Shown piece by piece: positions 1-64,000 of a stretch of DNA of 64,000 nucleotides (position 1 is its first letter; the number at the start of each line of letters is the position of its first letter). The position numbers were made by a program, and so were the translations under genes. The notes under the pieces are model-generated. The model did no database searches, was not told the origin of the DNA, and saw nothing but the letters and a program-made list of their open reading frames with translations. Location: positions 32,001 through 96,000 of IMG/VR virus record IMGVR_UViG_646311924_000007; one strand, written 5' to 3'. Source of the DNA: a virus. Its lineage: Duplodnaviria; Heunggongvirae; Uroviricota; Caudoviricetes.

Positions 1-1138
1 TAAATGGTAGTTTTCTGACCTCTTTATACGAGAATTTCTTGTTCAACTCATTCGGCACCTTCTTAAAGGCAGCCAGGATCATTTCTTCAAGCTCTGACTG
101 GCTTTTATTTGGATGCCACCCTGAAATAAATATCTTATTGATATTCCGAACATTATAAGCACCATCTAATTTCTCTTGCTGGCCTTCGCCCCATGCCTTT
201 ACCCATGACAGTCCCGGGATGTTACGCACCAGAAAATACGTATAGTCCCCGCCCCATACGACCTGATCATCATAGGCAAGGTAATATTGTGCACGATTAC
301 GTGTGATCTCCGTTGTTTCGGCATCGGTACCTGCGGTTATGGGTGTCGTTGTCTTAACTGAAATCAAATTAGCTAAATTAGCCGCAGAATCGACAGGCGT
401 CAGATTTTGGCCAGCAACCAAGGTTATATCTCCGTTGGTGCACCATACCTTAAGTGTAATGGTCGAGCCTTCTGGCGGTATTTGCCCAATTAGCCCATCA
501 CCGAATCGAACCCCCAACTGCTCGGATGGTTTATAAAACTCAACGTAGACCTGGCTTTTACTTCCGGCTAACCGGAACATAGTGCTGGAAGACCACTGCG
601 TGGTCTTACCATCGGTCGTCACGAATACTTCCAGCTTATAGCAAACAGCAGTGAGAGCCTTTGATAACACGACTTCCAGAAATTCTTTAGCTGCCGTAAC
701 GGTATATGTCACCTCCTGGATTTCCAACTGTGCCACTTCTACCGTACCGGTGCCGTCAACCAACCTGCATACATCCATAGTCATGTAAGGATACTGGTCG
801 TCAGATATTAAAGGCATGTTTTTGGGGATTACCGCTGGGGCATCTTCACTTGTGGCGGTGATCTCAATCATCCCCGATGACGGTGTTGGCTTGGTACCAA
901 CGTAACTATTCGTTTCTGCCGCTGCCAGGATAGAAGAACGCCGCGTCGCGGTCGATATAAAGCCTTCAGCCAGCGCCGCATCGGCATACTGAAAGCACCT
1001 GTAGACAATCTGGGTAATAAACAATGTCAGCATCGAGACAAATTGAGAGCCGACAAACTTCGACCAGAATGAATCTTTCTCGACAAGCTCTTCAAACTCT
1101 GCACGAATACTGTCTTTAGTAGGTGTTGTTTTACTCAT
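1..1138 (-). CDS. phage baseplate/tail structural protein (J/gp6-like?), N-terminal part; gene runs off window start
   Basis: ATG at 1138-1136 overlaps the TGA of the upstream gene (ATGA); frame stays open to position 1. Family assigned from position in tail module only. Confidence 0.4.
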   Translation of the reverse strand, partial: MSKTTPTKDSIRAEFEELVEKDSFWSKFVGSQFVSMLTLFITQIVYRCFQYADAALAEGFISTATRRSSILAAAETNSYVGTKPTPSSGMIEITATSEDAPAVIPKNMPLISDDQYPYMTMDVCRLVDGTGTVEVAQLEIQEVTYTVTAAKEFLEVVLSKALTAVCYKLEVFVTTDGKTTQWSSSTMFRLAGSKSQVYVEFYKPSEQLGVRFGDGLIGQIPPEGSTITLKVWCTNGDITLVAGQNLTPVDSAANLANLISVKTTTPITAGTDAETTEITRNRAQYYLAYDDQVVWGGDYTYFLVRNIPGLSWVKAWGEGQQEKLDGAYNVRNINKIFISGWHPNKSQSELEEMILAAFKKVPNELNKKFSYKEVRKLPF

Positions 1139-1494
1139 AGCACCACGTCCTGTGTGATAGTTATATCCCTGATACGAATGGATATTTTCAACTTATCAAA
1201 AGCATCTCCCTCGGCTACTGACAAGCCAGAAATCGGTATGTCGGGTAAATCTACCGTCAGTTTTTGCAAAAGCATTGCCTCAACCGCAATTTGAACATGC
1301 GACAAGTTGGTCGGTTCGTGTTTAAACTGCGGTAAAACATTGCCCCATGACGGATCTCCGTATACCTCACCCTGATAAGTGTTTAGCCACTCATATAAAC
1401 GAGCGCCCCAGGCCTCCTCCTGGGACTCATACGTTTTTACGCCGGATAACTCCAGCGTCAGCAAAGGATCAATTTCGTTATTGTTGGCCATCAA
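1135..1494 (-). CDS. baseplate wedge protein (GpW/gp25-like)
   Basis: 119-aa ORF translationally coupled to both neighbours; size and the L.TY.GE..GDP.WG..LP motif resemble gp25/GpW-type proteins. Confidence 0.45.
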   Translation of the reverse strand: MMANNNEIDPLLTLELSGVKTYESQEEAWGARLYEWLNTYQGEVYGDPSWGNVLPQFKHEPTNLSHVQIAVEAMLLQKLTVDLPDIPISGLSVAEGDAFDKLKISIRIRDITITQDVVL

Positions 1495-4400
1495 TCAACT
1501 CTCGCGTAGTCATTCATCAACGGATCATCAATTGACAGTGGTACCGTGCGCATAACGCCCGGCTGAGGCGTGCTGACCTTTACGACAGTTCCCTGGCCTT
1601 TCGCCGAGTCTTTGGTGTGCTCTTCAATCCTGGCAAGCAATGAGGTCATCTGCGCAAACAGCCGCTTCGTTTCACCATCAAGTGAAACGGTATTATCAGC
1701 CAACTGCATTGTCGGCTTGGCACCGGAACCGCCAAGGTCACTAATAACCTGCCCGTCTATCTGCATACGACCGGTTGGTTGCTGCAAATCGTTGGCGGCA
1801 GTCGTCACCTGGGACGTGGAGGCTGGTTCAGGCGCATTATTTTTCCGCATCCCCGGCGAGTTGCGGAGTTTATCGAATAGTCCATCAATCCCCATTTGTG
1901 CGCCGAGCTGGTCAAAGTAACTTGAGTTGTTGGCCACCGGACGCGCCTCTTCAACTGGCATCGGGGTATCAACATACACATTGCCAGCTGCTGTTGCGGT
2001 CCCCTTCCCTCGTGCACGTTCTTCTAGCGTTCCCTGAACGACTTCCCGACGCATCCCCCGGCCATTCATGAATTTGTTGACCAGATCGTTAACGCCAACA
2101 GCATTGCCGATTTTGTCTACCAAACCGCCTTTCTCAAACGGGCTATCACCAGGGGTAAACGCCAGACCAGTAGACTGATCGATAACGGCGTTATCAGGTA
2201 GTGGTTCCCTCACTCCATATTGCGCCCCACCCTGTGCTCCTGCCCCAGGTGTATAGATTTCACCACCTAAATAGCGAGCACGATGAGTATTGACCTTGAT
2301 CGCGTACTCACGGTTTTCCTTCGATAAGTCACCGGTGCCTTTTTTCCACTTATTAATAGTGCCAAACCCAGCGTTATATGCAGTGATGGCCTCGTTTAAG
2401 TCTCCATTGGCTTGCTTCAGATACTTGCTCATGAGAAGAGCCGCAGCTTCTGCCGATTTCACAGGATCAAACGATTCACCTTCAGCTAAGCCAGTCTCTT
2501 CACGAGCAATGCCCGTGAACTGAAACATTCCTAGAGCACCAGTTTGTGATTTTGCGTACGGATTACCACCAGATTCAGTTGCAGCAATCGCGTAAAGAGT
2601 GCCTTCAGGAAGACCATATTTATTCTCCAGTTCAGCAAAATACGGAGCTAACTTATCGAGATTTGCCTTACCTTCAGCGCCAAGGCTTCCGACTTTTACA
2701 TCTAAGTTGCCATTATTGTAGGTATCAGCAGCTTTCTGAATGTCATTCCTGGTGCCGGTGGTATTACGCGACGATGATGACGAGCTATTTTGTCCAATAG
2801 CTGAATCAATTTTCCGCACCGCGCTATTGCCCGTTTCTACGGCATTTGCATTGATAATCTGATTGGCAGTTTCTTTAACTGTTTTATTGCTATCTTTCGC
2901 CGTGTCCAGTGCCGCATTTATCACGCGGGTAGCAATATTAGTCTGTTTAGCATCGGATTCAGTTTTAGAATCAGATGTCTCCTGGTGGCTATTAACCGGA
3001 GCTTTTAACTCTGGAGTGATTTCTTTTGCATTAGCCTCGCCGATCGGATTGGGTATTTTTGATACAATCATTGCCGCAGGGGTATTTTTAACGGCATCAA
3101 CCGCTGCATCTAATGCTTTACCGGGTAAATTTTTAACCCCATCCCAAATATTACCAGCCGCCTCTTTAATGTGTTTTCCTGGGTTCTTAATGAAGTCAAT
3201 TGCACTATCAATTGCATCACTGAAAACCTGTTTCAGGTTATCGACAGTAAAGAAGTCTTTTATGGCATCCAGCTTTTCAAGCAACTTATTAGATGTATCG
3301 CTAAACCATGCTGAAACAGCATCACCAATCTTTGCTGTGTAATCATCGAACTTGGTAGAAATGGTGTCGCCAAGGTTAGAAATATATGTTTCTAAGTTGG
3401 TAACCCCACTATCAATGGCCTGGGCAATACTTTCCGTCGAAAATGATTGCAACATATTGCCGATATCCTCAAATCCAAGTGATTTGAGAACATCACCAAT
3501 AGCACTGCTAATACCAGATACCAGTCCCCCCATATCGAGAACATTGGCTAACGTATAAGCGGCTTTTTGCTGGAATGATGGATCTTGTCCTGATTTAAGC
3601 CCAAACGCTCGACGTTGCGCTTCTGTATCATTCCAACCGGTTACCGCATCATAAATACCTCCAGCCACTGTGCCGACTAGGGGAATTGCGCGTAACGCCC
3701 CTTTACCAACTGCCTTTAATCCAAGTTTACCTGCTGCCCGGGCAGCCAAATCTCCGCCTTCATGGGCGAGAGTCTTCTTGCCACCACCGCGTAGCATTCC
3801 TACAAGTTTCTTTGCCCCCAGAGCGCCAAAAGCGAGTGCTCCAGCTTTTTTCAGCATGCCACGCCCCATTAACAACGACGCGACGCCACCGGCCCCCTTC
3901 CCTAACAGGCTAAATAGTTTGGACAGCAAGCCGCCCTTCTTTTTACCGGTGTTTTTGGCTATCTGATCAAGGGCGCGGAGAATCTTGTCATTGCCCTCTT
4001 TAATTTCGCTGGTCTGCTCCTGAAGTTCCTGAACCGTCCGTTTTTGGGTGTTAACCTGAACGACATCGGCACTATTTTGCGATTTACGCCTAAAAAAACC
4101 TTTTCTACGGCTGTTATCGTCATTGCCACGAATCACATCGGCAATAGACTTTCTGGCACCATTAAGCGATCCACCAACTTCTTTTGATATCCCGCCAAGC
4201 TCCTTCCCTGCTGCCCACAATGGACCAGCAACGGCATAACCTAACGCATCGACAGCACGAGTCTCTGAAGGGTTGCCTATGCCTTCAGCTACTTTTGACA
4301 GTTTTTTTAATAAACCTGATTCAGCATTTAGACGCTCATCATCCTCTTTGCGCCTGGCCTTTTCAGCACGTTCAGCACGGGCATCTTCCGCTGCGGCCTT

Positions 4401-4883
4401 ACTCCCTGACTTTCCAATAAAACGACCACGCGCATCGCGTTGGTTTTGGCTTTTTTGCGCACCGCCTTTTTGACCGAACATTTCGCGAGCGTGTTCGGCT
4501 GCTTCGGTCCGTTGCGCCTTTACATCTTCTGTTATAGCCTTCTTGCGTCGTTTTTTACCCTTTCGCGTAGTTGATTTGGCCTGCGGTTCCTGTAGAGCAA
4601 CATCCTCCTGAACTACACGAGAAACGTCCCCTAAATTAAGCCGTTTCATTGCCTCAACAATAGGGTCCACTGATGGCGCATTGGCCACAAAGTCTGGCCG
4701 GGAATTTTCGATTGTGCGATTTAATGCCGACACACTACGAGAGACAGGATCAACTGTAGCAACTCGCCCCCCTTTCAAATCTTCAACGGCTTCCCGAATA
4801 CCTGCAAGCTCTTCCAGCTCTTTTGCGCTGGCGGTTTCAACCGTCCTTATCACATCGTCAATGTTGGCGTTTTTTCTTTCCAT
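1491..4883 (-). CDS. sit: Sit-like tape-measure/internal virion protein with lytic transglycosylase domain
   Basis: 1130-aa ORF; SLT motif EGTLYAIAATESGGNPYAKSQTGALGMFQF; long Ala/Gly/Lys-rich central region; size close to P1 Sit. Confidence 0.85.
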   Translation of the reverse strand: MERKNANIDDVIRTVETASAKELEELAGIREAVEDLKGGRVATVDPVSRSVSALNRTIENSRPDFVANAPSVDPIVEAMKRLNLGDVSRVVQEDVALQEPQAKSTTRKGKKRRKKAITEDVKAQRTEAAEHAREMFGQKGGAQKSQNQRDARGRFIGKSGSKAAAEDARAERAEKARRKEDDERLNAESGLLKKLSKVAEGIGNPSETRAVDALGYAVAGPLWAAGKELGGISKEVGGSLNGARKSIADVIRGNDDNSRRKGFFRRKSQNSADVVQVNTQKRTVQELQEQTSEIKEGNDKILRALDQIAKNTGKKKGGLLSKLFSLLGKGAGGVASLLMGRGMLKKAGALAFGALGAKKLVGMLRGGGKKTLAHEGGDLAARAAGKLGLKAVGKGALRAIPLVGTVAGGIYDAVTGWNDTEAQRRAFGLKSGQDPSFQQKAAYTLANVLDMGGLVSGISSAIGDVLKSLGFEDIGNMLQSFSTESIAQAIDSGVTNLETYISNLGDTISTKFDDYTAKIGDAVSAWFSDTSNKLLEKLDAIKDFFTVDNLKQVFSDAIDSAIDFIKNPGKHIKEAAGNIWDGVKNLPGKALDAAVDAVKNTPAAMIVSKIPNPIGEANAKEITPELKAPVNSHQETSDSKTESDAKQTNIATRVINAALDTAKDSNKTVKETANQIINANAVETGNSAVRKIDSAIGQNSSSSSSRNTTGTRNDIQKAADTYNNGNLDVKVGSLGAEGKANLDKLAPYFAELENKYGLPEGTLYAIAATESGGNPYAKSQTGALGMFQFTGIAREETGLAEGESFDPVKSAEAAALLMSKYLKQANGDLNEAITAYNAGFGTINKWKKGTGDLSKENREYAIKVNTHRARYLGGEIYTPGAGAQGGAQYGVREPLPDNAVIDQSTGLAFTPGDSPFEKGGLVDKIGNAVGVNDLVNKFMNGRGMRREVVQGTLEERARGKGTATAAGNVYVDTPMPVEEARPVANNSSYFDQLGAQMGIDGLFDKLRNSPGMRKNNAPEPASTSQVTTAANDLQQPTGRMQIDGQVISDLGGSGAKPTMQLADNTVSLDGETKRLFAQMTSLLARIEEHTKDSAKGQGTVVKVSTPQPGVMRTVPLSIDDPLMNDYARVD

Positions 4884-4964
4884 GATCTTATCGCCTACCG
4901 CTTCGGTTTAAGTTTTTCTTCCAGTTTCTCCAACAGGAAAAACGCATAGGATTCAGTGAGACTT

Positions 4965-5846
4965 TCAGCGTCCTGAATCGGTATACCCCCATACAAAACC
5001 AGGTTGGACACTAAGGTCTGATAGCTTTTCAATCCCCACCTGTGGAATGAAGTCGGTAGCCCGAAAGGGCACCCACAGACGGGTATACGCACCCTCTGTG
5101 GACTCCTTTGTATCCTGGTTTGGGCATTTGTGCGGCGGGAGACGAAGACGCATTTCGCCTTTATCGATGTAGCACGGTAAACCATGTTCGAGCTTTTCAT
5201 GAGCCAGCCGGATGTGTGCCGCCAGCTTCATAAATTCAGTATCAATGGCCATCCGTTTGATCGTTTCATAACGACGCTCAGCCTGCTCTTCACGAGTACC
5301 GCTAACATCGTTATAAAGTTCACACTGATAAGCGAATTCCCAAAAACGCAAATCAACGATCGCTTCTTTGAATTCCGCGTCGTCTTCAGGTGGCAATGCT
5401 GCACGGCGCATCTCCAGCATTTCCATTGCCCAACCATCAAGCGGCACGATACGCCATTGATAAGGCACGCCCTCTACAGACACCTCAATATCGTCAATGA
5501 ACGGTTCCACTTCCAGGACCTGGATATCTTCAGCCAGAGCATTCATATCGCAATCGTAATAATGCTCTTTACCGCAATGTTTACAGGTGTAGGTGAATGT
5601 CTCGACCGGTGTTTCACGGGAGCCAGTAAATATCCACCATAACGCGGTAATCCGGTCCTGCGCCGTCCATGTCAGGGGATCATATTTCGCGGGTTCAGCC
5701 AGCAAGGCTTTTAAATACGCCGTTGTCTGTTGTTCTTGTTCCTCCGGTGTTATCGAGTTGAAACGCATCGCATCAGCAATATTTGGCTGACGGAACTGGA
5801 TCAATTCAGTTGGCCGCGATGGTAGCGGGAAAAGAGGTAAAAGCAT
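4965..5846 (-). CDS. hypothetical phage protein (Cys cluster CKHCGKEHYYDCD)
   Basis: 293-aa ORF in same orientation as sit operon; no family recognised. Confidence 0.45.
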   Translation of the reverse strand: MLLPLFPLPSRPTELIQFRQPNIADAMRFNSITPEEQEQQTTAYLKALLAEPAKYDPLTWTAQDRITALWWIFTGSRETPVETFTYTCKHCGKEHYYDCDMNALAEDIQVLEVEPFIDDIEVSVEGVPYQWRIVPLDGWAMEMLEMRRAALPPEDDAEFKEAIVDLRFWEFAYQCELYNDVSGTREEQAERRYETIKRMAIDTEFMKLAAHIRLAHEKLEHGLPCYIDKGEMRLRLPPHKCPNQDTKESTEGAYTRLWVPFRATDFIPQVGIEKLSDLSVQPGFVWGYTDSGR

Positions 5847-5860
5847 CCTTGCTCCTTAAT

Positions 5861-6472
5861 TCAAAGAGAAAAACTAAAGCCCAGAAGGGAAGCTAAAGAA
5901 CTTGAGGATTGGTTAAACGTGCTGTGCAATGCGAAGGTCATTGGGAATGACTTAAATTCCGTAACCTGATCCCGCGCATAGGTGACATCGCCGGTAGTGA
6001 CTGGGAATACCGTCATCTCATTTTCCAGTTTGGTTAAACCGGAGGACAGCAACCGATAAATACGCACATTGAGCAAATATTTAGACGGTATATTCCCGGT
6101 ACCGTCCGGATTGATCACCCGACCTTTTGCCGTCTTAAACCAGTCCAAAACGAGGCCATCAACGGTATCCCTGACCATCATTGTTATCTGCCCAGGCGAA
6201 CGCTCCGTTGGCTGAAGGATATTCCCTCCGCCGATTTTAATCGTTTCATATTCGATGCTGTAATCGTGGTAGGTAATGTCTTTAGCAAAGAAGTCTGCCC
6301 CCTCCAGACCATCAACTTCGACAGAGAACTGCCATCCTTGCGCGAACAGCATTTTGTTCATGATGATTGACGTCAGCTTACCAACTTCCCGCTCACCAAC
6401 GCCGGAGCCAAATAATGTCGTCGTTAATGCCGAAGATACATAAGACTTTACTGAAGCAACATTAAGCCCCAT
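5861..6472 (-). CDS. hypothetical phage protein
   Basis: 203-aa ORF, tightly spaced in minus-strand operon. Confidence 0.5.
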   Translation of the reverse strand: MGLNVASVKSYVSSALTTTLFGSGVGEREVGKLTSIIMNKMLFAQGWQFSVEVDGLEGADFFAKDITYHDYSIEYETIKIGGGNILQPTERSPGQITMMVRDTVDGLVLDWFKTAKGRVINPDGTGNIPSKYLLNVRIYRLLSSGLTKLENEMTVFPVTTGDVTYARDQVTEFKSFPMTFALHSTFNQSSSSLASLLGFSFSL

Positions 6473-6482
6473 ATCAGCCCCC

Positions 6483-7073
<591 letters not shown>

Positions 7074-7107
7074 TTAACCGATTCTACGAGTAGTCATTTG
7101 TGACAGG

Positions 7108-7584
7108 TCATTTTGCGCGCTTCAGGCAGCCATCTTCAGGTGCCGCGTTGAAAAGCTCTGCGGCCTTACGTAGCGTAAATGTTGCGATTTTTTTTCCGTC
7201 TACGTATGCATCGAATGTTTTAACTTCCATATCAGGGGTATCTGACCAAAAACCATACCAGTAACTATCACCCACAGAGGAACCGATAGAACTGATAGGA
7301 TATTCATCATCACCAACTTTCAGCGTTATTTGTTCTTTTTTAGCATCAAATGACTCACCACCTGGTTCTGTTTTCATGAGTGTGAGTAGTCGTGTTCCTA
7401 CTTGATTGGGATCCGTATTATTAAATCCAACATCGCACTCAAATGTAAGCGTATAATTATCTTTGCTGGAAACAGCATAAGAGCGAACACCATGAGTCTC
7501 GCTGGTGGACCATTTGCTTACATTTGCCATTGACGAAAAAGGAGTAAGCAAAGCAAGAATTAGAAAAAATCGTTTGATGCGCAT
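7108..7584 (-). CDS. secreted protein with N-terminal signal peptide
   Basis: Start chosen at ATG 7584 (MRIKRFFLILALLTPFSSMA) preceded by AGGAG; ORF track gives a longer frame to 7611. Confidence 0.55.
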   Translation of the reverse strand: MRIKRFFLILALLTPFSSMANVSKWSTSETHGVRSYAVSSKDNYTLTFECDVGFNNTDPNQVGTRLLTLMKTEPGGESFDAKKEQITLKVGDDEYPISSIGSSVGDSYWYGFWSDTPDMEVKTFDAYVDGKKIATFTLRKAAELFNAAPEDGCLKRAK

Positions 7585-7648
7585 TAATTTATCTCCTTTG
7601 TATATTAACAATTATTATCAATATTTTAATTAATTACCCATCATATAT

Positions 7649-8296
7649 TTACCATTCATAGGGTAAATTAAGCGCTTTTAAACCTTGCTGGAAGGTATTA
7701 AGTGAGCCGTTCTTTTGTTGTTCCATTTTTTCGCGTGCCGCTTTCTCATACTGCTCCATCCGTTGGTTATACTCTTGCAATTCTTCTGGAGAGAGGTTTC
7801 CCATTGGGGAGTTTGTACCCGGCCCCCTGGCCCGCTCTTCAAGCGTACCCTGAACGTTTTGATAGCGCATTCCTGGGGCATTTCTGATTGAGTCAATGCC
7901 ATTTCTTCCAACATCTTCTTTATTAACGGCATTGCTCGCCACCAGCACCCCCCAGCTAGGGATAGCAAAATCAGGAGCGGTTTCGCATGCCTTTACCATA
8001 TAATCGAAAGAGCTTCGATTGATCTCGTTTGCGTCGGGATTTAATAGGCGAGAATATTGATATTTAGCATTTTCGTTGGTTGCGACTTTATACAGTTCTT
8101 GCTGCACCATCGCTTCAGAAAGTTTAAGGCGTTTCATATCTGACAGTAACTTCTTGCGCATGGATTCGTCTTGACTGACAGCAAAGCCGTAAACGTGCCC
8201 AAGGTATTTCGTATAATCGGTACAAATCTCCTTTACGCTTGATGCTGCATTAACAGTCCCAGCCATAAATAATAACGGTAGTAATAGTTTTCTCAT
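7649..8296 (-). CDS. secreted protein sharing a GMR..VQGTLEERARG.GT motif with Sit
   Basis: Start chosen at ATG 8296 (MRKLLLPLLFMAGTVNAASS signal peptide); first gene of minus-strand operon diverging from operator at 8403. Confidence 0.55.
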   Translation of the reverse strand: MRKLLLPLLFMAGTVNAASSVKEICTDYTKYLGHVYGFAVSQDESMRKKLLSDMKRLKLSEAMVQQELYKVATNENAKYQYSRLLNPDANEINRSSFDYMVKACETAPDFAIPSWGVLVASNAVNKEDVGRNGIDSIRNAPGMRYQNVQGTLEERARGPGTNSPMGNLSPEELQEYNQRMEQYEKAAREKMEQQKNGSLNTFQQGLKALNLPYEW

Positions 8297-8402
8297 TATA
8301 ACCTCACCTGCCTTATAACCCATTTAGGGTACATATTTTCGCCTTTAAAAAAAAGAGGTTATTAGATCCAATTGTGTATTTATTAAGCATATAATGCTCT
8401 AA

Positions 8403-8419
8403 TAAATTTGTATTTTTAA
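8403..8419 (+). promoter_or_regulatory. C1 repressor operator-like site (AATGCTCTAATAAATTT)
   Basis: 16/17 match to recalled P1 C1 operator consensus ATTGCTCTAATAAATTT; in divergent intergenic region. Confidence 0.6.
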
Positions 8420-8723
8420 GTCGCGAATGCTATCTTTTCGCATCATATTGACCTTTTAATCGTTCAGGCTTATAGTTCCGCCGTCGTAGCAAATTCTGCG
8501 ACCGGGTTTAGCAGCCTGAATGATTGTGCGGACAGCCGCAGATATCCGATATTGCGGTATTTTTGTGTCCGTAAAACCGCGTTACGCCCAAATTATGGTG
8601 GGGCGTGATGGGGAGGCTTCGGCCTGCTGGTTTCACAATCGCCAGTCTGCTAACCCCGTCACGTCCTGCCACCTGTTTAGCAGCGGGTAGCAGGTTGTTA
8701 AACCTGATTGTGAGGCCGTAACT

Positions 8724-10057: not shown

Positions 10058-10074
10058 TTTGCTCTAATAAATTT
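10058..10074 (+). promoter_or_regulatory. C1 operator-like site upstream of kilA-repL (Op53 position)
   Basis: TTTGCTCTAATAAATTT, 16/17 to consensus, ~70 bp upstream of kilA start. Confidence 0.65.
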
Positions 10075-10944: not shown

Positions 10945-10973
10945 CAGACGTAGTAAGAACCACCAGCATTGTA

Positions 10974-54868: not shown

Positions 54869-54928
54869 GCATCTCTCCCCTTTGAGGCCACAATTAGTGG
54901 CCTTAAACAATGTGTTTTCTACCTCGAT

Positions 54929-55144: not shown

Positions 55145-55174
55145 CTCATCCCTTGAGGAAAATTCAGCAACAAT

Positions 55175-55510: not shown

Positions 55511-55646
55511 AGCTAATTCCTTATTAACTGATTGGCAACGAGGTTACGCTGATCCCGCGGTGATGAATAGTAGCAAAGCGCACAAAAATCATCAGCGGTG
55601 GTTGATGTACATAACGCGTTTGCACCAAAGGTGCTTCTTTAATGTA

Positions 55647-55666
55647 TACTGTACAGATAAACAGTA
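55647..55666. promoter_or_regulatory. LexA (SOS) box upstream of humD
   Basis: TACTGTACAGATAAACAGTA fits CTGT-N8-ACAG; overlaps likely -10 TATACT; ~20 bp upstream of humD start. Confidence 0.55.
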
Positions 55667-55684
55667 TTTTTGAGGTAAAACGCT

Positions 55685-56074
55685 ATGGGTTTCCCTTCTC
55701 CTGCGGCGGATTATGTTGAAAGCCGAATTTCTCTTGATCAGCAGATAATTAGACATCCATCAGCAACCTACTTCATGCGGGCAGCTGATAGCCATCACCG
55801 TGAGGGAATATTGCAGGGTGCTTTGCTGGTGGTTGATTCCTCGCTTACTCCGGTTGATGGTTCTCTGCTTGTGTGCGCTATGGAGGGTGAATATCGCATA
55901 AAGAGATACAGGAAGTATCCGCGCCAGCACCTGGAGGATTTAAGCACCGGGAAGAAAGAGGCGTTACCAGTAGATGACGATGGTTACACGGGTAGTAATG
56001 CTGTTTTTGGTGTGATCACTCATGTCATCAATGATGCCCGAAGTGGGGAATTTGATGATTGTCCGGTGATTTAA
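55685..56074 (+). CDS. humD: UmuD-like SOS mutagenesis protein
   Basis: 129 aa with S24 peptidase/UmuD-prime-like fold signature; preceded by LexA box. Confidence 0.75.
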   Translation: MGFPSPAADYVESRISLDQQIIRHPSATYFMRAADSHHREGILQGALLVVDSSLTPVDGSLLVCAMEGEYRIKRYRKYPRQHLEDLSTGKKEALPVDDDGYTGSNAVFGVITHVINDARSGEFDDCPVI

Positions 56075-56146
56075 GCTGCAAAGTGCTGGTGCTTTATGCC
56101 TGTGAAGTTTATAATTGTGTACACATAACGAGTACACGAGGTGTTT

Positions 56147-56368
56147 ATGCAATCCATTAACTTCCGTACCGCGCGTGGCAACCTTTCTGAAGTGCTCAAC
56201 AATGTTGAAGCCGGGGAAGAGGTTGAAATCACCCGCAGAGGCCGTGAGCCAGCAGTAATTGTCAGCAAGGCTACTTTCGAAGCCTACAAAAAAGCGGCGC
56301 TGGATGCTGAATTTGCATCCCTGTTTGACACCCTGGACTCCACCAACAAGGAACTGGTTAACCGATAA
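56147..56368 (+). CDS. phd: Phd antitoxin
   Basis: 73 aa [39 protein letters not shown]..., P1 Phd as recalled; palindromic GTGTACAC/GAGTACAC sites at 56117-56140 upstream. Confidence 0.9.
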
Positions 56369-56748
56369 TGAGGCATATATCACCGGAAGAACTTATTGCG
56401 CTTCATGATGCGAATATAAACCGCTACGGCGGCCTGCCGGGAATGTCAGATCCGGGTAGGGCAGAGGCCATTATCGGGAGAGTTCAGGCCAGAGTTGCCT
56501 ACGAAGAGATCACCGACCTTTTCGAAGTCTCCGCCACCTACCTGGTGGCTACAGCGAGAGGGCATATATTCAATGATGCCAATAAGCGTACCGCGCTAAA
56601 CAGTGCGCTGTTATTTCTACGCCGTAACGGGGTGCAGGTATTTGATTCACCTGAACTGGCAGACCTTACCGTAGGGGCTGCGACCGGAGAGATATCTGTA
56701 TCTTCTGTCGCCGACACGTTACGTAGATTGTATGGTTCCGCGGAGTAG
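56368..56748 (+). CDS. doc: Doc toxin (Fic-family kinase)
   Basis: 126 aa, overlaps phd stop; Fic motif region [15 protein letters not shown]. Confidence 0.9.
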
Positions 56749-56752
56749 ATTA

Positions 56753-56932
56753 ATGGCACGTAAATACAACAAATTGTCCCGTGAAGCGTTAAAGATGCTT
56801 CTTGATGGCGTGAGTCGCCGCGAGGTAAAGCAATACCTGGTTGGTAAGCAAATTGGTGCCAGGACCGCTATTGCTGTGTTATGCCGTCAGGAAATGGTAG
56901 TGCTTAAACAGAGAATGCCGGGCAGCAGATAA
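56753..56932 (+). CDS. small protein downstream of doc (pdcA position)
   Basis: Start taken at ATG 56753 (MARKYNKLSREALKMLLDGV). Confidence 0.35.
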   Translation: MARKYNKLSREALKMLLDGVSRREVKQYLVGKQIGARTAIAVLCRQEMVVLKQRMPGSR

Positions 56933-56959
56933 AGCCCAATCAGTGATTAAAGGTGTGAT

Positions 56960-58003
56960 GTGAAAGCCGTAATTACTCCCTTTGTACAGAAAGAGCTTGG
57001 CCTCGCCACGTTCAAAGTGGATCAGGAGGTCAGAAAGCTGGTGGAGGCTGGCCGTAAATTTATTATGGAGCCGGTGCCGCGTGAGTTAATCGAGCACATG
57101 GAAGACGGCCTCGTTGTTACCGAGCAAACCATGGCAACAAATGAGGCGTTGCAGCCGTTTTTTAACAGCGATGAACTGTTTCGCCGTATTGGTGGAATTG
57201 ACGCGCTGGTGGCGTGGTTGCGCAGGAAAGAGGGGCAATGCCAGGCCGCAGATCGTAGCTGGTGTGACAACCATATTGTCCACGCAGAACGAGACAATAG
57301 CGCGGTGTTGTTGTGCTGGCATCACGATAACCATTACCGGATGCGTGGTTTTAATGAGCTGAAAGAAACGCTGCATAATAATCGCGTTAACTGGATACTG
57401 GATGTCGCCCGTCAGGAAATGGGGCTTTCAGATGGCCATGATTTAAGTATTCAGGAACTGTGCTGGTGGGCTTTCATGCGCAACATGATGCACCTGATGC
57501 CGGAAGAAGTTTGCCGTATATCAATAAATAAGATGAAAGCCGCAACGCAGGATAGCGGACCTCTGAAAGAGGCGGATATTCGCCCGTATGACGATCGCGC
57601 TACAGCATATGTTCAGATGATGGAAGAACGCGCCGCGCCGATGCGTGCAAAAGTATGCCCTGTGGATGTTGACTCCGACCCAGGTATGGCGCATTTCAAG
57701 ATACCAAAACTTCAATCGCTAAAATTACCTGAGTACATGGACTTTGTTGCTTCCCGTCCATGCTGTGGGTGTGGAGCGGCGGGAGCTGGCGCTCACATTA
57801 CGCCTTATATCGTTCGTCATAGTCGATTATGCGCGCATGACATTTACGCAATTCCTCTGTGCCAGTCATGCCAGCGTGATATTGAGCGTGACCGCGATAA
57901 TTGGGAGAAGACGCACGGTAGGCTGGCGATGCATCAACGATTGTTCTTTGATTACGCGCTTGGAGTCGGCGCTATCACAAGTCACTCGTCGAGCGTTAGA
58001 TAA
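56960..58003 (+). CDS. Cys-rich protein downstream of doc (pdcB position)
   Basis: 347 aa with [12 protein letters not shown] and CQSCQRD clusters. Confidence 0.45.
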
Positions 58004-58004
58004 A

Positions 58005-58021
58005 ATTGCTCTAATGTATTG
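58005..58021 (+). promoter_or_regulatory. weak C1 operator-like site (ATTGCTCTAATGTATTG)
   Basis: First 11 positions match consensus, 3 mismatches in 3' half; upstream of lpa. Confidence 0.35.
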
Positions 58022-58091
58022 CTATTTCTTTAATAGAGGGTATTATATTCCACGTTGATTAGTTGACATGGGCTAATCAGTAGGTGACAGG

Positions 58092-58544
58092 ATGTTACTT
58101 AACTGGCAGGGACGCCACTTCATGGAAATAAATCACTCACGAATAACATCGTATGAGATTGCGGATTACATGATCCGCACTAAGTCTTTTCTATCAGCGA
58201 AAGAACTCGCAGCAATCCTTGAAAAGGAATACCCGCATCTGGATGTCGATAAGCGCGATGTTTATCTGCGCTTAAAGGCTATCGCTGTGTCTAAGTATTC
58301 GTCTGTTTTGATTGATGACAGTACACGCCCACGTAGATTTCAGATCCACTCTCTGAATCCTGAATTCTTTCGCCGTAGCCGCGCTCCGCGCCGGTTTGAT
58401 GAAAAACTCCAGAACGAACTCTATATGACGCAGGACGAAAAGGAACGCCGGGAGCACCAGCCTTGGGTAATGGCGCGTCAACTTTTCAATAAGGTGGCCC
58501 GTCAGCACCGTCATTACGGTAATGCCACATCCGCACGTATCTGA
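58092..58544 (+). CDS. lpa: late promoter activator Lpa-like protein
   Basis: 150-aa ORF immediately upstream of pacA as in P1. Assignment by position and size. Confidence 0.6.
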   Translation: MLLNWQGRHFMEINHSRITSYEIADYMIRTKSFLSAKELAAILEKEYPHLDVDKRDVYLRLKAIAVSKYSSVLIDDSTRPRRFQIHSLNPEFFRRSRAPRRFDEKLQNELYMTQDEKERREHQPWVMARQLFNKVARQHRHYGNATSARI

Positions 58545-58629
58545 TTGATTGCTTGCCCGTTCCGGGCCTTTTGACATGTGACTTTCGTTACCCTCGCGTC
58601 AAAAAGAGTTTTTACGAAAGGAAGCATAA

Positions 58630-59823
58630 GTGACCTGGGACGATCACAAGAAGAATTTTGCTCGCCTGGCGCGAGATGGTGGTTACACCATCGCACAGTA
58701 TGCCGCCGAGTTTAATCTTAACCCTAATACCGCACGTCGTTATCTCCGTGCCTTCAAAGAAGACTCCAGGACTGCGGACAGCCGCAAGCCAAATAAGCCA
58801 GTCAGGAAGCCACTAAAAAGCATGATCATTGATCACTCTAATGATCAACATGCAGGTGATCATATTGCGGCTGAAATAGCGGAAAAACAGAGAGTTAATG
58901 CCGTTATCAGTGCCGCAGTCGAGAATGCGAAGCGCCAAAATAAGCGCATAAATGATCGTTCAGATGATCATGACGTGATCACCCGCGCCCACCGGACCTT
59001 ACGTGATCGCCTGGAACGCGACACCCTGGATGATGATGGTGAACGCTTTGAATTCGAAGCTGGCGATTACCTGATAGATAACGTTGAAGCGCGGAAGGCC
59101 GCGCGCGCTATGTTGCGTCGGTCCGGGGCCGATGTTCTGGAAACCACTCTTCTTGAAAAGTCTCTTTCTCATCTCCTTATGCTGGAGAACGCCAGGGATA
59201 CGTGTATTCGCCTGGTGCAGGAAATGCGCGATCAGCAAAAAGACGATGATGAAGGTACTCCGCCTGAATACCGTATCGCGAGCATGCTAAACAGCTGTTC
59301 CGCGCAGATAAGCAGTCTGATCAACACCATTTACAGCATCCGGAATAACTATCGAAAAGAAAGCCGGGAGGCGGAAAAGCACGCTTTATCTATGGGGCAA
59401 GCTGGCATTGTTAAGCTGGCATACGAACGAAAGCGTGAAAATAACTGGTCAGTGCTGGAAGCAGCTGAATTCATCGAGGCGCATGGTGGGAAAGTTCCGC
59501 CCCTGATGCTGGAGCAAATCAAAGCCGATCTGCGTGCTCCTAAGACCAATACCGATGATGAGGAAAGGCAAACAGCCGTCGGTGGCCCTTCTCTTGAAGA
59601 TCTGGACAAAGTTGCGCGAGAACGGGCCGCCAGCCGCCGCGCTGATGCCGCATTGTGGATTGAGCATCGTAGAGAAGAAATTGCCGATATCGTCGATACA
59701 GGTGGTTATGGTGATGTCGATGCGGAAGGCATATCAAACGAAGCATGGCTTGAACAGGATCTGGACGAAAACGAGGAGGAAGACGAAGAAGTTACCCGCA
59801 AACTGTACGGGGATGATGATTAA
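58630..59823 (+). CDS. pacA: terminase small subunit PacA
   Basis: 397 aa, GTG start; contains pac hexamer clusters; followed by terminase large subunit. Confidence 0.8.
58823..58981. other. pac: pac packaging site (two clusters of TGATCA/G hexamers)
   Basis: Four TGATCA at 58823, 58830, 58842, 58857 and three TGATC(A/G) at 58953, 58965, 58976 within pacA, each containing a GATC. Confidence 0.65.
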
Positions 59824-61307
59824 TGGCCAGAAGTTGCGTAACGGACCCACGTTGGCGCGAGCTGGTGGCGCTATATCGTTATGACTGGATTGCGGCCGCT
59901 GATGTGTTGTTTGGGAAGACACCAACCTGGCAGCAGGATGAGATCATTGAGTCCACGCAGCAGGACGGCAGTTGGACAAGTGTGACCTCCGGCCATGGTA
60001 CTGGTAAGTCGGATATGACGAGTATCATTGCAATACTCTTCATCATGTTTTTCCCCGGCGCTCGCGTTATTCTGGTCGCTAACAAAAGACAGCAAGTCCT
60101 TGATGGTATTTTCAAATACATAAAGAGCAATTGGGCTACTGCTGTTAGCAGATTCCCGTGGTTGTCGAAGTATTTCATTCTTACAGAAACGTCTTTTTTT
60201 GAGGTGACTGGCAAGGGTGTTTGGACAATATTGATAAAGTCCTGTCGCTCCGGAAATGAGGAGGCGTTGGCTGGTGAACACGCCGATCATCTCTTGTATA
60301 TCATCGACGAAGCGTCGGGTGTGAGTGATAAAGCATTCAGTGTGATAACAGGTGCGCTGACCGGTAAGGATAACCGTATTCTGCTTCTTTCCCAGCCTAC
60401 GCGACCTTCAGGCTATTTCTACGATTCACACCACAGACTAGCTATTCGCCCGGGAAATCCTGATGGATTGTTTACTGCGATAATACTGAATAGTGAAGAA
60501 TCTCCGCTTGTAGATGCAAAATTTATACGAGCAAAACTTGCGGAGTATGGCGGTCGTGATAACCCCATGTACATGATCAAAGTACGTGGTGAATTTCCCA
60601 AATCTCAAGATGGCTTTCTTCTTGGTCGTGATGAGGTTGAGCGGGCGACGCGGCGAAAGGTCAAGATTGCCAAAGGATGGGGCTGGGTTGCATGTGTTGA
60701 CGTTGCTGGTGGCACAGGACGAGATAAGTCCGTTATTAATATCATGATGGTGTCCGGCCAGCGAAATAAACGCCGTGTAATCAACTATCGTATGCTGGAA
60801 TACACAGACGTTACAGAAACGCAGTTAGCCGCCAAGATTTTCGCAGAATGTAACCCAGAACGGTTCCCGAACATAACCATAGCTATTGATGGCGATGGCT
60901 TGGGGAAATCGACGGCTGATCTGATGTACGAACGCTATGGTATTACCGTCCAGCGTATCCGCTGGGGTAAAAAGATGCACAGCCGTGAAGATAAAAGCCT
61001 TTATTTCGATATGCGCGCTTTCGCGAATATTCAGGCGGCAGAAGCTGTAAAATCAGGGCGTATGCGGCTTGATAAGGGGGCTGCGACTATAGAGGAAGCA
61101 TCAAAGATACCGGTAGGGATAAATTCCGCAGGTCAATGGAAGGTGATGTCAAAGGAAGATATGAAGAAAAAACTCAACCTGCACTCACCGGACCATTGGG
61201 ATACATATTGTTTCGCTATGTTGGCGAACTATGTTCCCCAAGATGAAGTGCTTAGCGTCGAAGACGAAGCGCAGGTTGATGAAGCTCTGGCATGGCTTAA
61301 TGAATGA
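59823..61307 (+). CDS. pacB: terminase large subunit PacB
   Basis: 494 aa; Walker A-like region and C-terminal nuclease segment ([11 protein letters not shown]). Confidence 0.85.
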
Positions 61308-61310
61308 ATA

Positions 61311-61327
61311 TTTGCTCTAATAAATTG
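61311..61327 (+). promoter_or_regulatory. C1 operator-like site (TTTGCTCTAATAAATTG)
   Basis: 15/17 to consensus, 4 nt after pacB stop. Confidence 0.55.
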
Positions 61328-61645
61328 TGTTTTTTAACTACCGATGTTACATTGAGCCTGACCTCTTGCGCCTTGAGGCATTTTCGGTTTATGCTTATCA
61401 GGCACCTCATTAAAACGGGTGCCGGGATTGGCCTCCCGCTTAAGTCTAAGGCGATACAGACGCCGCTCGCGTCTTTTTTTGTATCGGCGTACACGCACAC
61501 CTCTACAATGGTGGGCTGTATGGGGCTACCTTCGGGTAGGCTGGTTACCTTGGACGCCAGTAAGGCCAACTCCGTACAGTCCACCGCCAGCAAGATTGGT
61601 CTCTTCTGCGGTGGTTACATACCAACGTCTAAGGAGGCTGCCAAT

Positions 61646-61867
61646 ATGGCTACTATCCCTACCCCAACTCATCCTGAATTTATCTGGCGCTTTTACTCCT
61701 GCCAAAAACGTCACTATCACTTCGTTATTGCACCAACAGAAGATGAGGCTCGCTCTCAGCTTCCTGACGCCCCATGTATTTTCTCTGCCCGTTTTTCCAC
61801 TGATTCACGCAATTCTCTCAGTTACTGGTGCCTCCCTGTTAACGCTTCTGCTCAGGAGGGACTATGA
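61646..61867 (+). CDS. Icd-like small protein, paralog 2
   Basis: 73 aa MATIPTPTHPEFIWRFYSCQKRHYHFVIAPTEDEARSQLPDAPCIF; stop 61865-61867 sits 3 bp before the IS end. Confidence 0.65.
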   Translation: MATIPTPTHPEFIWRFYSCQKRHYHFVIAPTEDEARSQLPDAPCIFSARFSTDSRNSLSYWCLPVNASAQEGL

Positions 61868-61912
61868 GAATGAACCGCCCCGGGTTTCCTGGAGAGTGTT
61901 TTATCTGTGAAC

Positions 61913-62803
61913 TCAGGCTGCCAGATCATCGTTTCCGATGGAAGCATAATAAGCTTTTTCTGCTTCTGCCGGAGGAGTATGGCCCAGCCTTCCCAGCAAT
62001 CGTCGATTGTTATACCAGTCCACCCACGTTAGTGTGGCCAGTTCCACTTCTGCACGGTTTTTCCAGCTCTTACGGTGTATTACCTCCGCTTTGTAAAGAC
62101 CATTGATGCTCTCAGCCATCGCGTTGTCATACGAGTCGCCTGTACTCCCTGTTGATGCCAGTAATCCGGCTTCTTTTAGTCGCTCCGTATAGGCCAGTGA
62201 CACATACTGAGAGCCTTTATCGCTGTGATGGATGGTGCCAGACGGACGACGGGCCCACAACGCCTGCTCCAGCGCATCCAGCACGAATGTCGTTTCCATA
62301 GACGATGAGACCCGCCACCCCACGATGTATCCGGCAAACACATCAATGATAAACGCCACATAGACGAAGCCCTGCCATGTGCTGACGTAAGTAAAATCAG
62401 CCACCCACAGCTGGTCAGGTCGTTCTGCCACGAACTGACGGTTTACGCGGTCGCCTGCGGCAACGGCTTTCCGGCTGATGGTCGTACGGACCTTTTTACC
62501 CCGGAGAACACCGGCAAGTCCCATAACCGCCATGAGACGTGCCACTGTACATCTGGCCACCCTGATTCCTTCCCGTAACAACTGACGCCAGACTTTACGC
62601 ACACCGTACACCTGATGATTTTCATCGTATACGCGCTGTATCTCTCTCTTCAGCCAGTCGTCGTGCTGCGCACGGGCACTGCGTTTATCCGGATGATGTC
62701 GCTGTTGCTGACAATGGTAATACGTTGACGGGGCAATATGCAGTTCGCTGCATACCGGTCCGACCCCGTACTGCTCACGCAGCTTATCCAGCAGTGGCAT
62801 CAT
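61913..62803 (-). CDS. IS3-family transposase OrfB (copy 2)
   Basis: Translation identical to copy 1 OrfB. Confidence 0.85.
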
Positions 62804-63126
62804 TTTTTCCAGAGGCGGTCGAACTCCGCCTTCGCAAAATAAGCGGAAGCCTGGCGAAGGATATCGTTACTGCGGCGCAGTTCACGATTTTCACGTTCCA
62901 GCTCTTTCAGACGCTGACGTTCAGCGCTGGTGAGCCCACCATCACCGCCCCCGGTATCCCGCTCATGCTGGCGAACCCAGACACGCAGAGTCTCCGGCGT
63001 ACAGCCAATCTTTGGGGCAATGGAACAAATTGCCGCCCACTGTGAGTCATATTCATCCTGACTTTCCAGAACCATACGAATCGCCCGCTGACGGACTTCG
63101 GGGGAAAAACGAGTATTTTTAGTCAT
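62800..63126 (-). CDS. IS3-family transposase OrfA (copy 2)
   Basis: Translation identical to copy 1 OrfA. Confidence 0.85.
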
Positions 63127-63206
63127 CCTGTTTACCTCTTTCTCAGGGAGTTTAGTCTCCAGGATTTCCGGGGCGGTTCAGAACGTCATTAGTCACCCGT
63201 GAAGAG

Positions 63207-64000
63207 ATGATCGAGGCAATTGAACAGCACACAATCTGTATCAGCACCAGGGATATACCTGGCGTTATTGCCAACTACTTCATGATCACCAAACAACTTT
63301 ACCGGAGAAAGGACAAGAACGCGGTTCACCGTATCCTGTTGTCTGATATCCGCGAATACCTGCTCGAACAGGGTCATCTGAATTACGCAACCGTCGCAGC
63401 CGAAGCACGCAAGGAGGCACACAGAATGAAAGCAAATAACGTTAAATTAGAAAAAATTCATGCACCTTCAGTTCAGGAATCGGAGCTGGTGGTTGTTCAG
63501 AATCAGTCTGATGAAATTCCCGTTCTGGAATGGCAGGGAGTGCGTGTAGTGACAACCGAGACTCTTGCGAGAGGGTATGGGACAGAAACAATCCGTATTC
63601 GCCAAAATCATCATGAGAACAAAGTACGCTTTGTTGAAGGGAAGCACTTTTTCAAAGTTGAAGGAGAATCATTGCGCGAGTTGAAGCACAGAGTAGCTTT
63701 AAACTACTCTGTAAAAATTGCTCGCAATGTTCGCTCACTCACCCTCTGGACAGAACGCGGCGCAGCCCGCCACGCTAAAATGCTCGAAACCGATCAGGCA
63801 TGGGCATTCTTTGAAAAACTGGAAGACAGCTACTTCCGACAAAAAGAACAGCAACCGATCGCAATCCCCCAGACGCTTCCTGAAGTCCTACGCCTGGCTG
63901 CCGAACTGGCTGAACAAAAGCAACTTCTGGAACAGAAAGCCCACCAGCTAAATCAGCAGCTGGTGGCCGCCGCTCCTAAAGTCGATTTTGCCGACCGGGT
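63207..64000 (+). CDS. antirepressor-like protein with KilAC domain, paralog of 8942..9979; runs off window end
   Basis: ATG 63207; N-terminal CISTRDIPGVIANYFMITKQLY parallels CMPTREIPGAIANYFMITRRFY; C-terminal LPEVLRLAAELAEQK...APKVDFADR matches KilAC. Confidence 0.6.
   Translation, partial: MIEAIEQHTICISTRDIPGVIANYFMITKQLYRRKDKNAVHRILLSDIREYLLEQGHLNYATVAAEARKEAHRMKANNVKLEKIHAPSVQESELVVVQNQSDEIPVLEWQGVRVVTTETLARGYGTETIRIRQNHHENKVRFVEGKHFFKVEGESLRELKHRVALNYSVKIARNVRSLTLWTERGAARHAKMLETDQAWAFFEKLEDSYFRQKEQQPIAIPQTLPEVLRLAAELAEQKQLLEQKAHQLNQQLVAAAPKVDFADR

Follow-up and report, generated by a model that had tools for sequence, protein, structure and literature searches.

P1-like phage-plasmids have a rigid backbone and a well-documented exchange of cassettes at fixed hot-spots. 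Hypervariable regions D-H were delineated among 54 P1-like phage-plasmids, for which swapping between IncY and p0111 replicons was also described (PMC9603915), and an ant gene inserted between pacB and c1 was reported for pTZ20_1P and RCS47 (PMC6906374). The DNA analyzed here, a 64,000-nucleotide stretch of a virus record (hereafter the window), fits this picture, and its five gaps correspond to regions D-H. We assign it, with a probability of about 0.93, to the P1 family (Punavirus) as a phage-plasmid of the p0111-replicon sublineage that keeps the P1 gene order and differs from P1 by cassette swaps, an extra immI-like module, an intein and IS629 insertions. The mosaicism is that of the family at large. 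As a p0111-type P1-like phage-plasmid the window is typical, and its significance beyond correct annotation is slight. Its features are listed in Table 1.

Table 1. Features of the window, with positions counted from its first nucleotide.
Feature	Position	Strand	Remarks
Backbone: bplA (cut by window start), pmgA, sit, pmgB, tub, pmgC	1..7101	-	collinear with P1 39498-46628; 97.1% nucleotide identity, proteins 96-100%
sim-region replacement	7102..8156	-	simC, simB absent; hypervariable region D (PMC9603915)
immI module	8393..9979	+	Oc4 (C1 operator) 8393-8409; a1/b1 targets 8470-8522; C4 antisense RNA 8591-8676
immI gene icd	8724-8945	+
immI gene ant1/2	8942-9979	+
Lytic replicon	10058..11819	+	OrepL 10058-10074; kilA 10144-10944; repL/oriL 10974-11819
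hok/sok type I toxin-antitoxin cassette	11834..12526	+	replaces rlfA-rlfB-pmgF; hypervariable region E
Backbone: bplB, pmgG, 21, 22 (sheath), 23 (capsid), parS, parB, parA	12527..20429	-
p0111-type replicon cassette	20430..22678	-	replaces incA-repA-oriR
Backbone: upfA, mlp, ppfA, upfB, upfC; Odmt operator, uhr, hrdC	22679..26277	-; +	upfA to upfC on -, Odmt to hrdC on +
dmt	26278..29319	+	1013 aa; C5-MTase and Dam-type N6-MTase; carries 341-aa intein
Dmt intein	26509..27531	+	LAGLIDADG type, in frame
tRNA-Asn, tRNA-Tyr, tRNA-Thr	29992..30238	+	tRNA-Tyr absent from P1
tciA-tciB-tciC replacement	31087..32174	+	hypervariable region G
Backbone: ban, dbn, 5, 6, 24, 7, 25, 26, pmgL-P, ppp, 5' part of pmgQ	32175..42898
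IS629 copy 1	42899..44208	+	1310 bp; in pmgQ; 3-bp target duplication GAC
Backbone: 3' part of pmgQ, pmgR, pmgS, pap, 5' part of pmgT	44209..47741	+	operators OpmgR a/b, OpmgT
Accessory cluster of small lambdoid-prophage-type genes	47742..54942	+	replaces pmgV-hot; hypervariable region H
Backbone: lxr, humD, phd, doc, pdcA, pdcB, lpa, pacA, pacB	54943..61305
Second immI-like module	61311..64000	+	between pacB and c1 (c1 outside window)
IS629 copy 2	61871..63180	-	in second ant; 3-bp target duplication GAA

Alignment placed window positions 1-61305 on P1 39498-93204 along a single strand with strictly increasing coordinates. Twelve blocks (minimum length 300 bp, minimum identity 80%; 46.7 kb) were shared with P1, all on the plus strand and strictly increasing in P1 coordinates, and the 10 blocks shared with P7 were likewise plus-stranded and strictly monotone. 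Every one of the P1 genes found in the window (57 of the 70 tested) was in P1 order and orientation; the other 13 were absent and replaced. Collinearity extended to phage Ro157c2YLVW and to the complete plasmid p7_33_80A-2, and it covers the 64-kb window; a further ~30 kb of the element, with cre-lox, c1/immC, res-mod and the tail fibres with their cin-invertible segment, lies outside. In 255 complete E. coli genomes, 80% or more of the first 25 kb lies in one place, so the layout is common.

These results contradict the original prediction, which had described an arrangement unlike the P1 map and had named collinear alignment with a P1-family genome as the observation that would speak against it; such collinearity was found with P1, P7, Ro157c2YLVW and p7_33_80A-2. 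The features that had seemed odd are native to P1. The distance of ppp from repA was one of these, and ppp starts 18.1 kb past repA in the P1 annotation and 19.5 kb past it in the window. A separation of kilA-repL from the immI-like module had also been perceived; kilA-repL directly follows ant, as in P1, with kilA starting 168 nt after ant in the window and 165 nt after ant1 in P1. Baseplate genes at two places had been counted as a third anomaly, and P1 itself has three such sites (bplA, bplB and 5/24/26), which are matched in the window at 2-1138, 12572-13078 and 34952-39700. The same layout is present in the annotations of both P1 and P7. The apparent rearrangements came from an incorrect picture of the P1 map, and the scattered baseplate, immunity and replication genes of P1 should not be taken for rearrangement.

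Physical reshuffling of modules by translocation or inversion, giving an order unlike that of P1, is therefore extremely unlikely given the monotone, same-strand blocks against P1 and P7 and the shared order of 57 genes. It was backed only by the map assumed in the original prediction, although two features of the window could in principle suggest it. One is the second icd/ant module, distant from immI; it is an insertion at a site known in other P1-like plasmids and not a displaced immI. The other is the pair of IS629 copies, which are identical in sequence and mutually inverted and so could permit rearrangement. Each copy keeps its own matched 3-bp target duplication, however, and the 17.7 kb between them is in the P1 orientation, which rules out an IS629-mediated inversion between the copies. 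Both copies are 100% identical to annotated IS629 copies, encode ORFs of 108 and 296 aa and contain the ALIL frameshift pseudoknot, and their excision in silico restored pmgQ and ant.

The gene content identified in the original prediction proved sound. Protein identities to P1 were 100% for parA, parB, phd and ban, 99% for kilA and doc, 98% for repL and 97% for pacA, and pacB was present as a 494-aa ORF (59823-61307) whose DNA is 98% identical to that of P1. The hok locus was confirmed as a hok ORF (12297-12452) with an Rfam sok match at 12128-12302. The prediction's reading of a recombinant P1-like phage-plasmid that is neither P1 nor P7 also stands, on the grounds of 73% coverage by P1, mixed alleles and identity tracts that switch between relatives, and not on the gene order on which it had been based.

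The window has the features of Punavirus P1 subgroup 1. Backbone genes are in P1 order, kilA-repL/oriL lies under a C1 operator, a p0111-type replicon is combined with parABS partition, and both a C1-repressor regulon and an immI antisense C4-icd-ant unit are present. Twelve matches to the 17-bp C1 operator were found at the operator positions of P1, where 0.34 would be expected by chance. There is next to no probability that the element is simply P1 or P7 with a few insertions. The shared backbone, at 97-98% identity, would agree with such a view, but P1 aligns to only 73% of the window (at ~97-98% identity) and P7 to 69%, the initiator that replaces repA is only 41% identical to it, and 13 P1 genes are missing, with other sequence in their place. 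The par type is unlike that of P7 and the c4 type unlike that of P1; species-level identity with either phage is thus excluded by coverage and by the combination of p0111 rep, P1-type par and P7-type c4.

The window represents about two thirds of a P1-family phage-plasmid that departs from P1 in four ways, namely allelic cassette replacements at the known hypervariable hot-spots (sim, rlfAB-pmgF, repA, tciABC and pmgT-hot), an extra immI-like cassette between pacB and c1, an intein in dmt and what appear to be two recent simple IS629 insertions. The sim replacement contains two secreted or lipoprotein-like ORFs (7108-7611 and 7649-8323). In the replicon cassette, RepA' (21598-22482) has Rep3 WH1/WH2 domains and 41% amino acid identity to P1 RepA, and it matches JL22 gp58, annotated 'p0111', at 294 of 295 aligned positions. 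The MOB-suite label 'IncHI1B', given to plasmids with the same rep cassette, was not adopted, since an identical gene has been typed as p0111 in the literature. The cassette also encodes a T5orf172/GIY-YIG-like protein (20970-21305) and a further ORF (20496-20900). The tciABC replacement encodes a small membrane protein (31112-31348) and an SPFH/Band-7 lipoprotein (31329-32156), and a further tRNA(CAT) lies at the trnI position of P1 (32184-32259). The accessory cluster in the pmgT-hot interval includes Ead/Ea22, DUF551 and other genes, with a 5.6-kb lambdoid-like gene cluster at pmgT and a short pmgT-3'/pmgU remnant (53384-53739), and is 99.8-100% identical to plasmid p7_33_80A-2. No Pfam family was assigned to most of the small ORFs of this 47.7-54.9 kb cluster.

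Alleles characteristic of different relatives are combined in the window. The parAB genes are P1-type, with ParA and ParB 100% identical to those of P1 in amino acid sequence, and the P7 par region did not align to the window in the P7 alignment. The c4/immI region is P7-type, and repA' is p0111-type. In the identity profile, from which a patchwork history was deduced with four reference sequences only, Ro157c2YLVW matched at 100% in the ~12-33 kb interval and p7_33_80A-2 did so at 28-36 and at 48-64 kb; between 36 and 47 kb, all four references reached only 94-99%. Because of the mixed par, c4 and rep alleles and the alternation of 100% and 94-98% identity tracts to different relatives, we infer that repeated homologous recombination among related P1-like elements over the conserved backbone probably swapped cassettes and left their order unchanged. 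No match to the whole window was present in the phage, plasmid or complete-E. coli collections, where the best right-hand match had 89-90% coverage, and no record among 5,426 genomes covered at least 80% of the query at either IS629 junction; hence, this exact combination is unsampled. An unsampled mix of P1 par, P7 c4 and p0111 rep illustrates recombination between co-circulating P1-like elements.

The same patchwork could be an assembly artefact in which reads of two P1-like plasmids resident in the same host were combined as a chimeric contig. Abrupt shifts between tracts that are 100% identical to different references would be expected of such a contig, as would a combination found in no database record. 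Plasmids that share par and rep types are incompatible, however, so two elements that both carried P1-type par and p0111 rep would probably not have been co-resident. ORFs are unbroken across the switch regions and the duplications at both IS629 insertions are clean. Patchworks and hot-spot exchange of the same kind are on record for P1-like plasmids with finished, closed sequences (PMC6906374, PMC9603915). A chimeric contig is thus very unlikely, and a genuine recombinant is the preferred reading. Judging only from IS629 and the hosts of the nearest relatives, the background of the element was most probably a Shiga-toxin-producing E. coli.

The insertion in dmt is a class 1 intein with a LAGLIDADG homing endonuclease, for which splicing is predicted from its sequence motifs. 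These include Cys1, a block B TNDH, two LAGLIDADG motifs, a terminal His-Asn and a +1 Cys, which is the catalytic Cys of the host PCQ motif; the junctions read GTP/C...VVHN/CQAFS. Domain matches were to Hint, Intein_splicing and LAGLIDADG_3, and the GC content of the intein was 42.7% compared with 49.2% for the rest of dmt. The in-frame position and the intein junctions rule out an insertion sequence or a foreign gene as the identity of this ~1,020-bp insertion. Cytosine methyltransferases from Mannheimia (48% identity), from Propionibacterium, and from jumbo coliphages and mycobacteriophages contain homologous inteins, and the deposited P1 isolate OP279344 carries the Dmt intein at 99%, which weakens any view of it as new to science. 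A literature search of incomplete coverage found no papers tying inteins to P1-like elements. About 3% of complete E. coli genomes have the Dmt intein, which is not annotated as such.

Extra icd/ant modules had been predicted in the plural, and exactly one was found (61311-64000). It comprises a C1-operator-like site (61311-61327), an isrK-like leader (61402-61479), a C4 RNA (61504-61591), an icd-like ORF (~61646-61867) and the start of ant (61864), which is broken after 7 nt by IS629 and runs off the window end. At the resident immI, the C4 RNA and the a1/b1 targets scored above Rfam gathering thresholds, the c4 recognition bases were those of the P7 allele, and the c4 region was identical to that of P7. 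Heteroimmunity between P1-like elements may be influenced by such a second C1-operated C4-icd-ant cassette. Calculated RNA duplex energies favoured cognate C4/leader pairs by ~10 kcal/mol, in a duplexfold calculation that ignores loop accessibility, and duplexfold gave uninformative values on the upstream C4 targets. It is possible, though on balance doubtful, that the module is a complete second immI circuit of the dual heteroimmunity type, with an antisense specificity orthogonal to that of the resident P7-type C4. If so, the sublineage would have two antirepressor switches, each gated independently by antisense RNA, and IS629 would have silenced the second ant here and left its C4 RNA and icd intact.

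Among described systems, P1 (NC_005856) shares with the window the genes from bplA to pacB in identical order and orientation, DNA of 97-98% identity, identical parA/parB proteins and C1 operators in the same positions. Unlike P1, the window has p0111 repA' instead of IncY repA, a P7-type c4 allele, replacements of simBC, rlfAB-pmgF, tciABC and pmgV-hot, and added elements in the immI-like module after pacB, the Dmt intein, tRNA-Tyr and two IS629 copies. P7 (NC_050152) has a collinear backbone and an identical c4/immI leader region, and its pap-humD hot-spot is likewise occupied by an Ead/Ea22-type accessory cluster, but its par is unaligned, its repA is IncY-type, a module between pacB and c1 is lacking, and its insertion sequence is IS903 instead of IS629. 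The p0111-type P1-like phage-plasmids have the same hypervariable regions as the window; one of them, JL22 (ON018986), shares repA' and the same neighbouring ORF, but has an IS1380/IS5-blaCTX-M-55 insertion that is absent from the window, and no resistance genes were seen in the window segments examined. In pTZ20_1P and RCS47, ant also lies between pacB and c1, whereas the inserted ant of the window is knocked out by IS629. The nearest sequenced relatives are vB_EcoM-Ro157c2YLVW (NC_050153), with a continuous match of 28,023 bp at 99.43% (window 1-28023) that includes the hok, p0111 rep, intein and SPFH cassettes, and p7_33_80A-2 (NZ_CP074817), which has 99.8-100% identity from 47248 to 64000, a span that takes in the second immI-like module, and in which c1, coi and cre directly follow the second ant. 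Both differ from the window in lacking the two IS629 insertions and in being only 94-98% identical over 36-47 kb; in addition, Ro157c2YLVW is without the 50.9-61.7 kb segment of the window, and p7_33_80A-2 has an IS91 in dmt.

The original prediction held that the gene order of the window is mosaic relative to that of Escherichia phage P1 (NC_005856). Alignment with the complete, annotated P1 reference by blastn placed window positions 1-61305 on P1 39498-93204 in blocks that were all on the plus strand, with P1 coordinates only rising. Restricting the alignment to blocks no shorter than 300 bp and no less than 80% identical left 12 for P1 (46.7 kb) and 10 for Enterobacteria phage P7 (NC_050152; 43.3 kb), strictly monotone and on the plus strand throughout. 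Translations of 70 P1 genes, spanning bplA to pacA in the annotation, were searched against the window by tblastn; 57 were found, all in P1 order and orientation and most 96-100% identical. Escherichia phage vB_EcoM-Ro157c2YLVW (NC_050153; hereafter Ro157c2YLVW) gave a single unbroken match of 28,023 bp (99.43%) followed by more collinear blocks, and the complete, circular E. coli plasmid p7_33_80A-2 (NZ_CP074817) was collinear with the window throughout. Collinearity, which the original prediction had itself named as evidence against a mosaic order, was thus found with four P1-family genomes, and mosaic gene order is not a genuine feature of this DNA. The arrangements that had seemed odd are those of P1. 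The start offset of ppp from repA is 18.1 kb in P1 and 19.5 kb in the window; kilA-repL, thought to be displaced, directly follows c4-icd-ant1/2 in P1 too (the gap from ant to kilA is 165 nt there, against 168 nt in the window); and the baseplate genes, regarded as scattered, occupy three sites in P1. The P7 annotation has the same layout as P1 for all of these genes. The supposed differences in order were errors about the P1 map.

Coordinates of features in the window and in P1
Feature	Sequence	Position	Strand	Remark
Baseplate sites	Window	2-1138; 12572-13078; 34952-39700
Baseplate sites	P1	39.2 kb; 53.5 kb; 73.7-78.5 kb		bplA; bplB; genes 5/24/26
repA	P1	61771-62631
ppp	P1	80760 (start)
Exported-protein cassette	Window	7102-8156		simC and simB replaced by two other exported-protein ORFs
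immI c4 region	Window	8440-8730	+
hok/sok cassette	Window	11834-12526		Toxin-antitoxin, replaces rlfA-rlfB-pmgF
hok	Window	12297-12452		51-aa ORF
parA/parB	Window	18116-20327	-
rep cassette	Window	20430-22678		incA-repA-oriR replaced by Rep3-type initiator and T5orf172/GIY-YIG-like ORF
Nuclease gene	Window	20496-21305	-	T5orf172/GIY-YIG-like
dmt	Window	26278-29319
Intein in dmt	Window	26509-27531	+	1,023-bp in-frame insertion, 341 aa
tRNA-Tyr(GTA)	Window	30072-30158	+
Membrane-protein cassette	Window	31087-32174		tciABC replaced by small membrane protein and SPFH/Band-7 lipoprotein
Lambdoid cluster	Window	47742-54942		pmgV, upfM-O, hot replaced and pmgT split by small lambdoid-prophage-type genes (Ead/Ea22, DUF551, others)
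IS629 copy 1	Window	42899-44208	+	In pmgQ; GAC duplication (3 bp)
IS629 copy 2	Window	61871-63180	-	7 nt into second ant; GAA duplication (3 bp)
Second immI-like module	Window	61311-64000	+
C1-operator-like site	Window	61311-61327		2 mismatches vs consensus
isrK-like leader	Window	61402-61479
Second C4 antisense RNA	Window	61504-61591		75.9 bits vs gathering score 45
icd homologue	Window	after second C4		Protein 80% identical to P1 Icd
Second ant	Window	61864 (start)		Interrupted by IS629

The window was searched in three thirds against 50,697 phage records by megablast, and P1-family genomes matched throughout all three (P1 39498 to 93204 and P7 42378 to 100063, always on the plus strand). 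The closest phage was Ro157c2YLVW, with 99.4% across the first 25 kb. Of the complete E. coli genomes, 255 contained 80% or more of that 25-kb stretch in one place, almost always on plasmids of about 90-100 kb, and 13 contained 80% or more of the final 24 kb. Together, the phage and complete-genome matches show that the window is a segment of a P1-like phage-plasmid. Every membership feature of this group that lies inside the window was found: backbone order, kilA-repL, an IncY/p0111 rep with parABS, the C1 operator network (12 matches in the window vs 0.34 expected) and immI. The remaining features (c1, cre-lox and cin) belong to the last third of the element, beyond the window.

The element is distinct from P1 and P7 at the strain level, as had been predicted, with mixed alleles and a p0111 plasmid replicon. 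Its description as a recombinant P1-like phage-plasmid stood for the alleles (par, c4 and rep), not for the gene order on which it had been based. ParA and ParB had 100% amino acid identity to those of P1, and the P7 par region did not align to the window. The immI c4 region was the P7 allele base for base, including the recognition bases that separate P7 from P1; this combination of P7-type c4 and P1-type par is absent from both phages. A 1-kb sliding identity profile against four references only revealed a patchwork, with 100% identity to Ro157c2YLVW at about 12-33 kb and to p7_33_80A-2 at 28-36 kb and 48-64 kb. Identity at 36-47 kb (genes 24 to pap) was only 94-99% to all four, and this lower identity between 100%-identical flanks implies a donor lineage outside these references. 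Neighbouring tracts showed 0% and then 2-5% divergence from one relative. Homologous recombination between related elements would leave such alternating tracts and is the mechanism we infer for the patchwork; that a chimeric assembly produced it instead is very improbable.

Gaps in the blastn alignment to P1 were local replacements or insertions. All five replacement sites correspond to hypervariable regions, D-H in a scheme of eight drawn up from 54 P1-like phage-plasmids, for which IncY/p0111 replicon alternation was also described (PMC9603915); the same low-GC hot-spots have been described elsewhere, and P1 and P7 recombine readily (PMC6906374). The predicted hok locus was present, together with an Rfam match to sok (114.8 bits). 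The Rep3-type initiator was only 41% identical to P1 RepA and matched gp58 (labeled "p0111" by its depositors) of the p0111-type P1-like phage-plasmid JL22 (ON018986) at 294 of 295 aligned positions; the rep cassette was present in 391 PLSDB plasmids. An identical rep cassette is on the NZ_AP018798.1 plasmid, which MOB-suite/PLSDB types as 'IncHI1B', a probable database mislabel because the published typing of the initiator is p0111. Between parA and repA', the p0111-type initiator gene, was a nuclease gene that comprised two ORFs (134 and 111 aa) but is annotated as a single 810-bp gene in Ro157c2YLVW; this may be a homing-endonuclease-like gene in decay that travels with the rep cassette. 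The lambdoid cluster was 99.8-100% identical to that of p7_33_80A-2. An extra tRNA-Tyr was located between tRNA-Asn and tRNA-Thr, the only two at this site in P1 and P7, and the P1 plp gene was fragmented beside it.

The insertion in dmt matched Hint, Intein_splicing and LAGLIDADG_3. As its junctions show (GTP/CFTAGH...AVVHN/CQAFS), it begins with Cys1 and ends in His-Asn, and the +1 Cys is also the catalytic residue in the PCQ motif of the C5-methyltransferase. With a block B of TNDH and two LAGLIDADG motifs, the insertion has the sequence hallmarks of a canonical class-1 intein whose LAGLIDADG endonuclease is of the double-motif type. Its GC content was 42.7% vs 49.2% for the remaining dmt. 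Among 5,426 complete E. coli genomes, 151 contained the intein (147 of its 152 places were on plasmids), and the annotation among the intein-bearing records listed was methyltransferase only, never intein. Cytosine methyltransferases of Mannheimia and Propionibacterium, and of unrelated phages (jumbo coliphages and mycobacteriophages), contain homologous inteins; it belongs to a known intein lineage. The sole PDB relative by sequence was a DnaX mini-intein (E = 0.0015). We found no paper on P1-like elements that mentions the Dmt intein.

Two identical 1310-bp elements in opposite orientation, 17.7 kb apart, were 100% identical to annotated IS629 of Stx phages, and each contained an IS3-type frameshift pseudoknot. 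Neither segment was present in any relative, and excising a copy with one duplication restored a full ORF at both sites. An IS-mediated inversion was ruled out because the duplications match for each copy and the intervening DNA is in P1 orientation. Neither junction occurred in any of the 5,426 complete E. coli genomes, so both insertions are unique to this element and were probably acquired recently. Interruption of pmgQ, a putative morphogenetic gene, might impair virion production. Judging by IS629 and by the hosts of its closest relatives, the element most probably has a STEC origin. All cassettes were present in public records at 99-100% identity, and only the allele and cassette combination and the two IS629 insertions are unsampled.

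The match to P1 stopped after pacB (end at 61307), where a second immI-like module repeats the architecture of immI (Oc4, a1/b1, c4, a2/b2, icd, ant). Extra icd/ant modules had been predicted; tblastn detected just one in the window. IS629, inserted seven nt past the start codon, knocks out the ant of this module. The second C4 has a fold like that of the first but differs in loop and target sequences, and the recognition sequences of the module are unlike those of both P1 C4 and P7 C4. By predicted duplex energies, each C4 favours its own leader by about 10 kcal/mol, which is suggestive, not proof, of two orthogonal C4 RNAs. The same module is present in p7_33_80A-2, where c1, coi and cre follow directly. 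Insertion of ant between pacB and c1 is already known, since it was reported for pTZ20_1P and RCS47 (PMC6906374).
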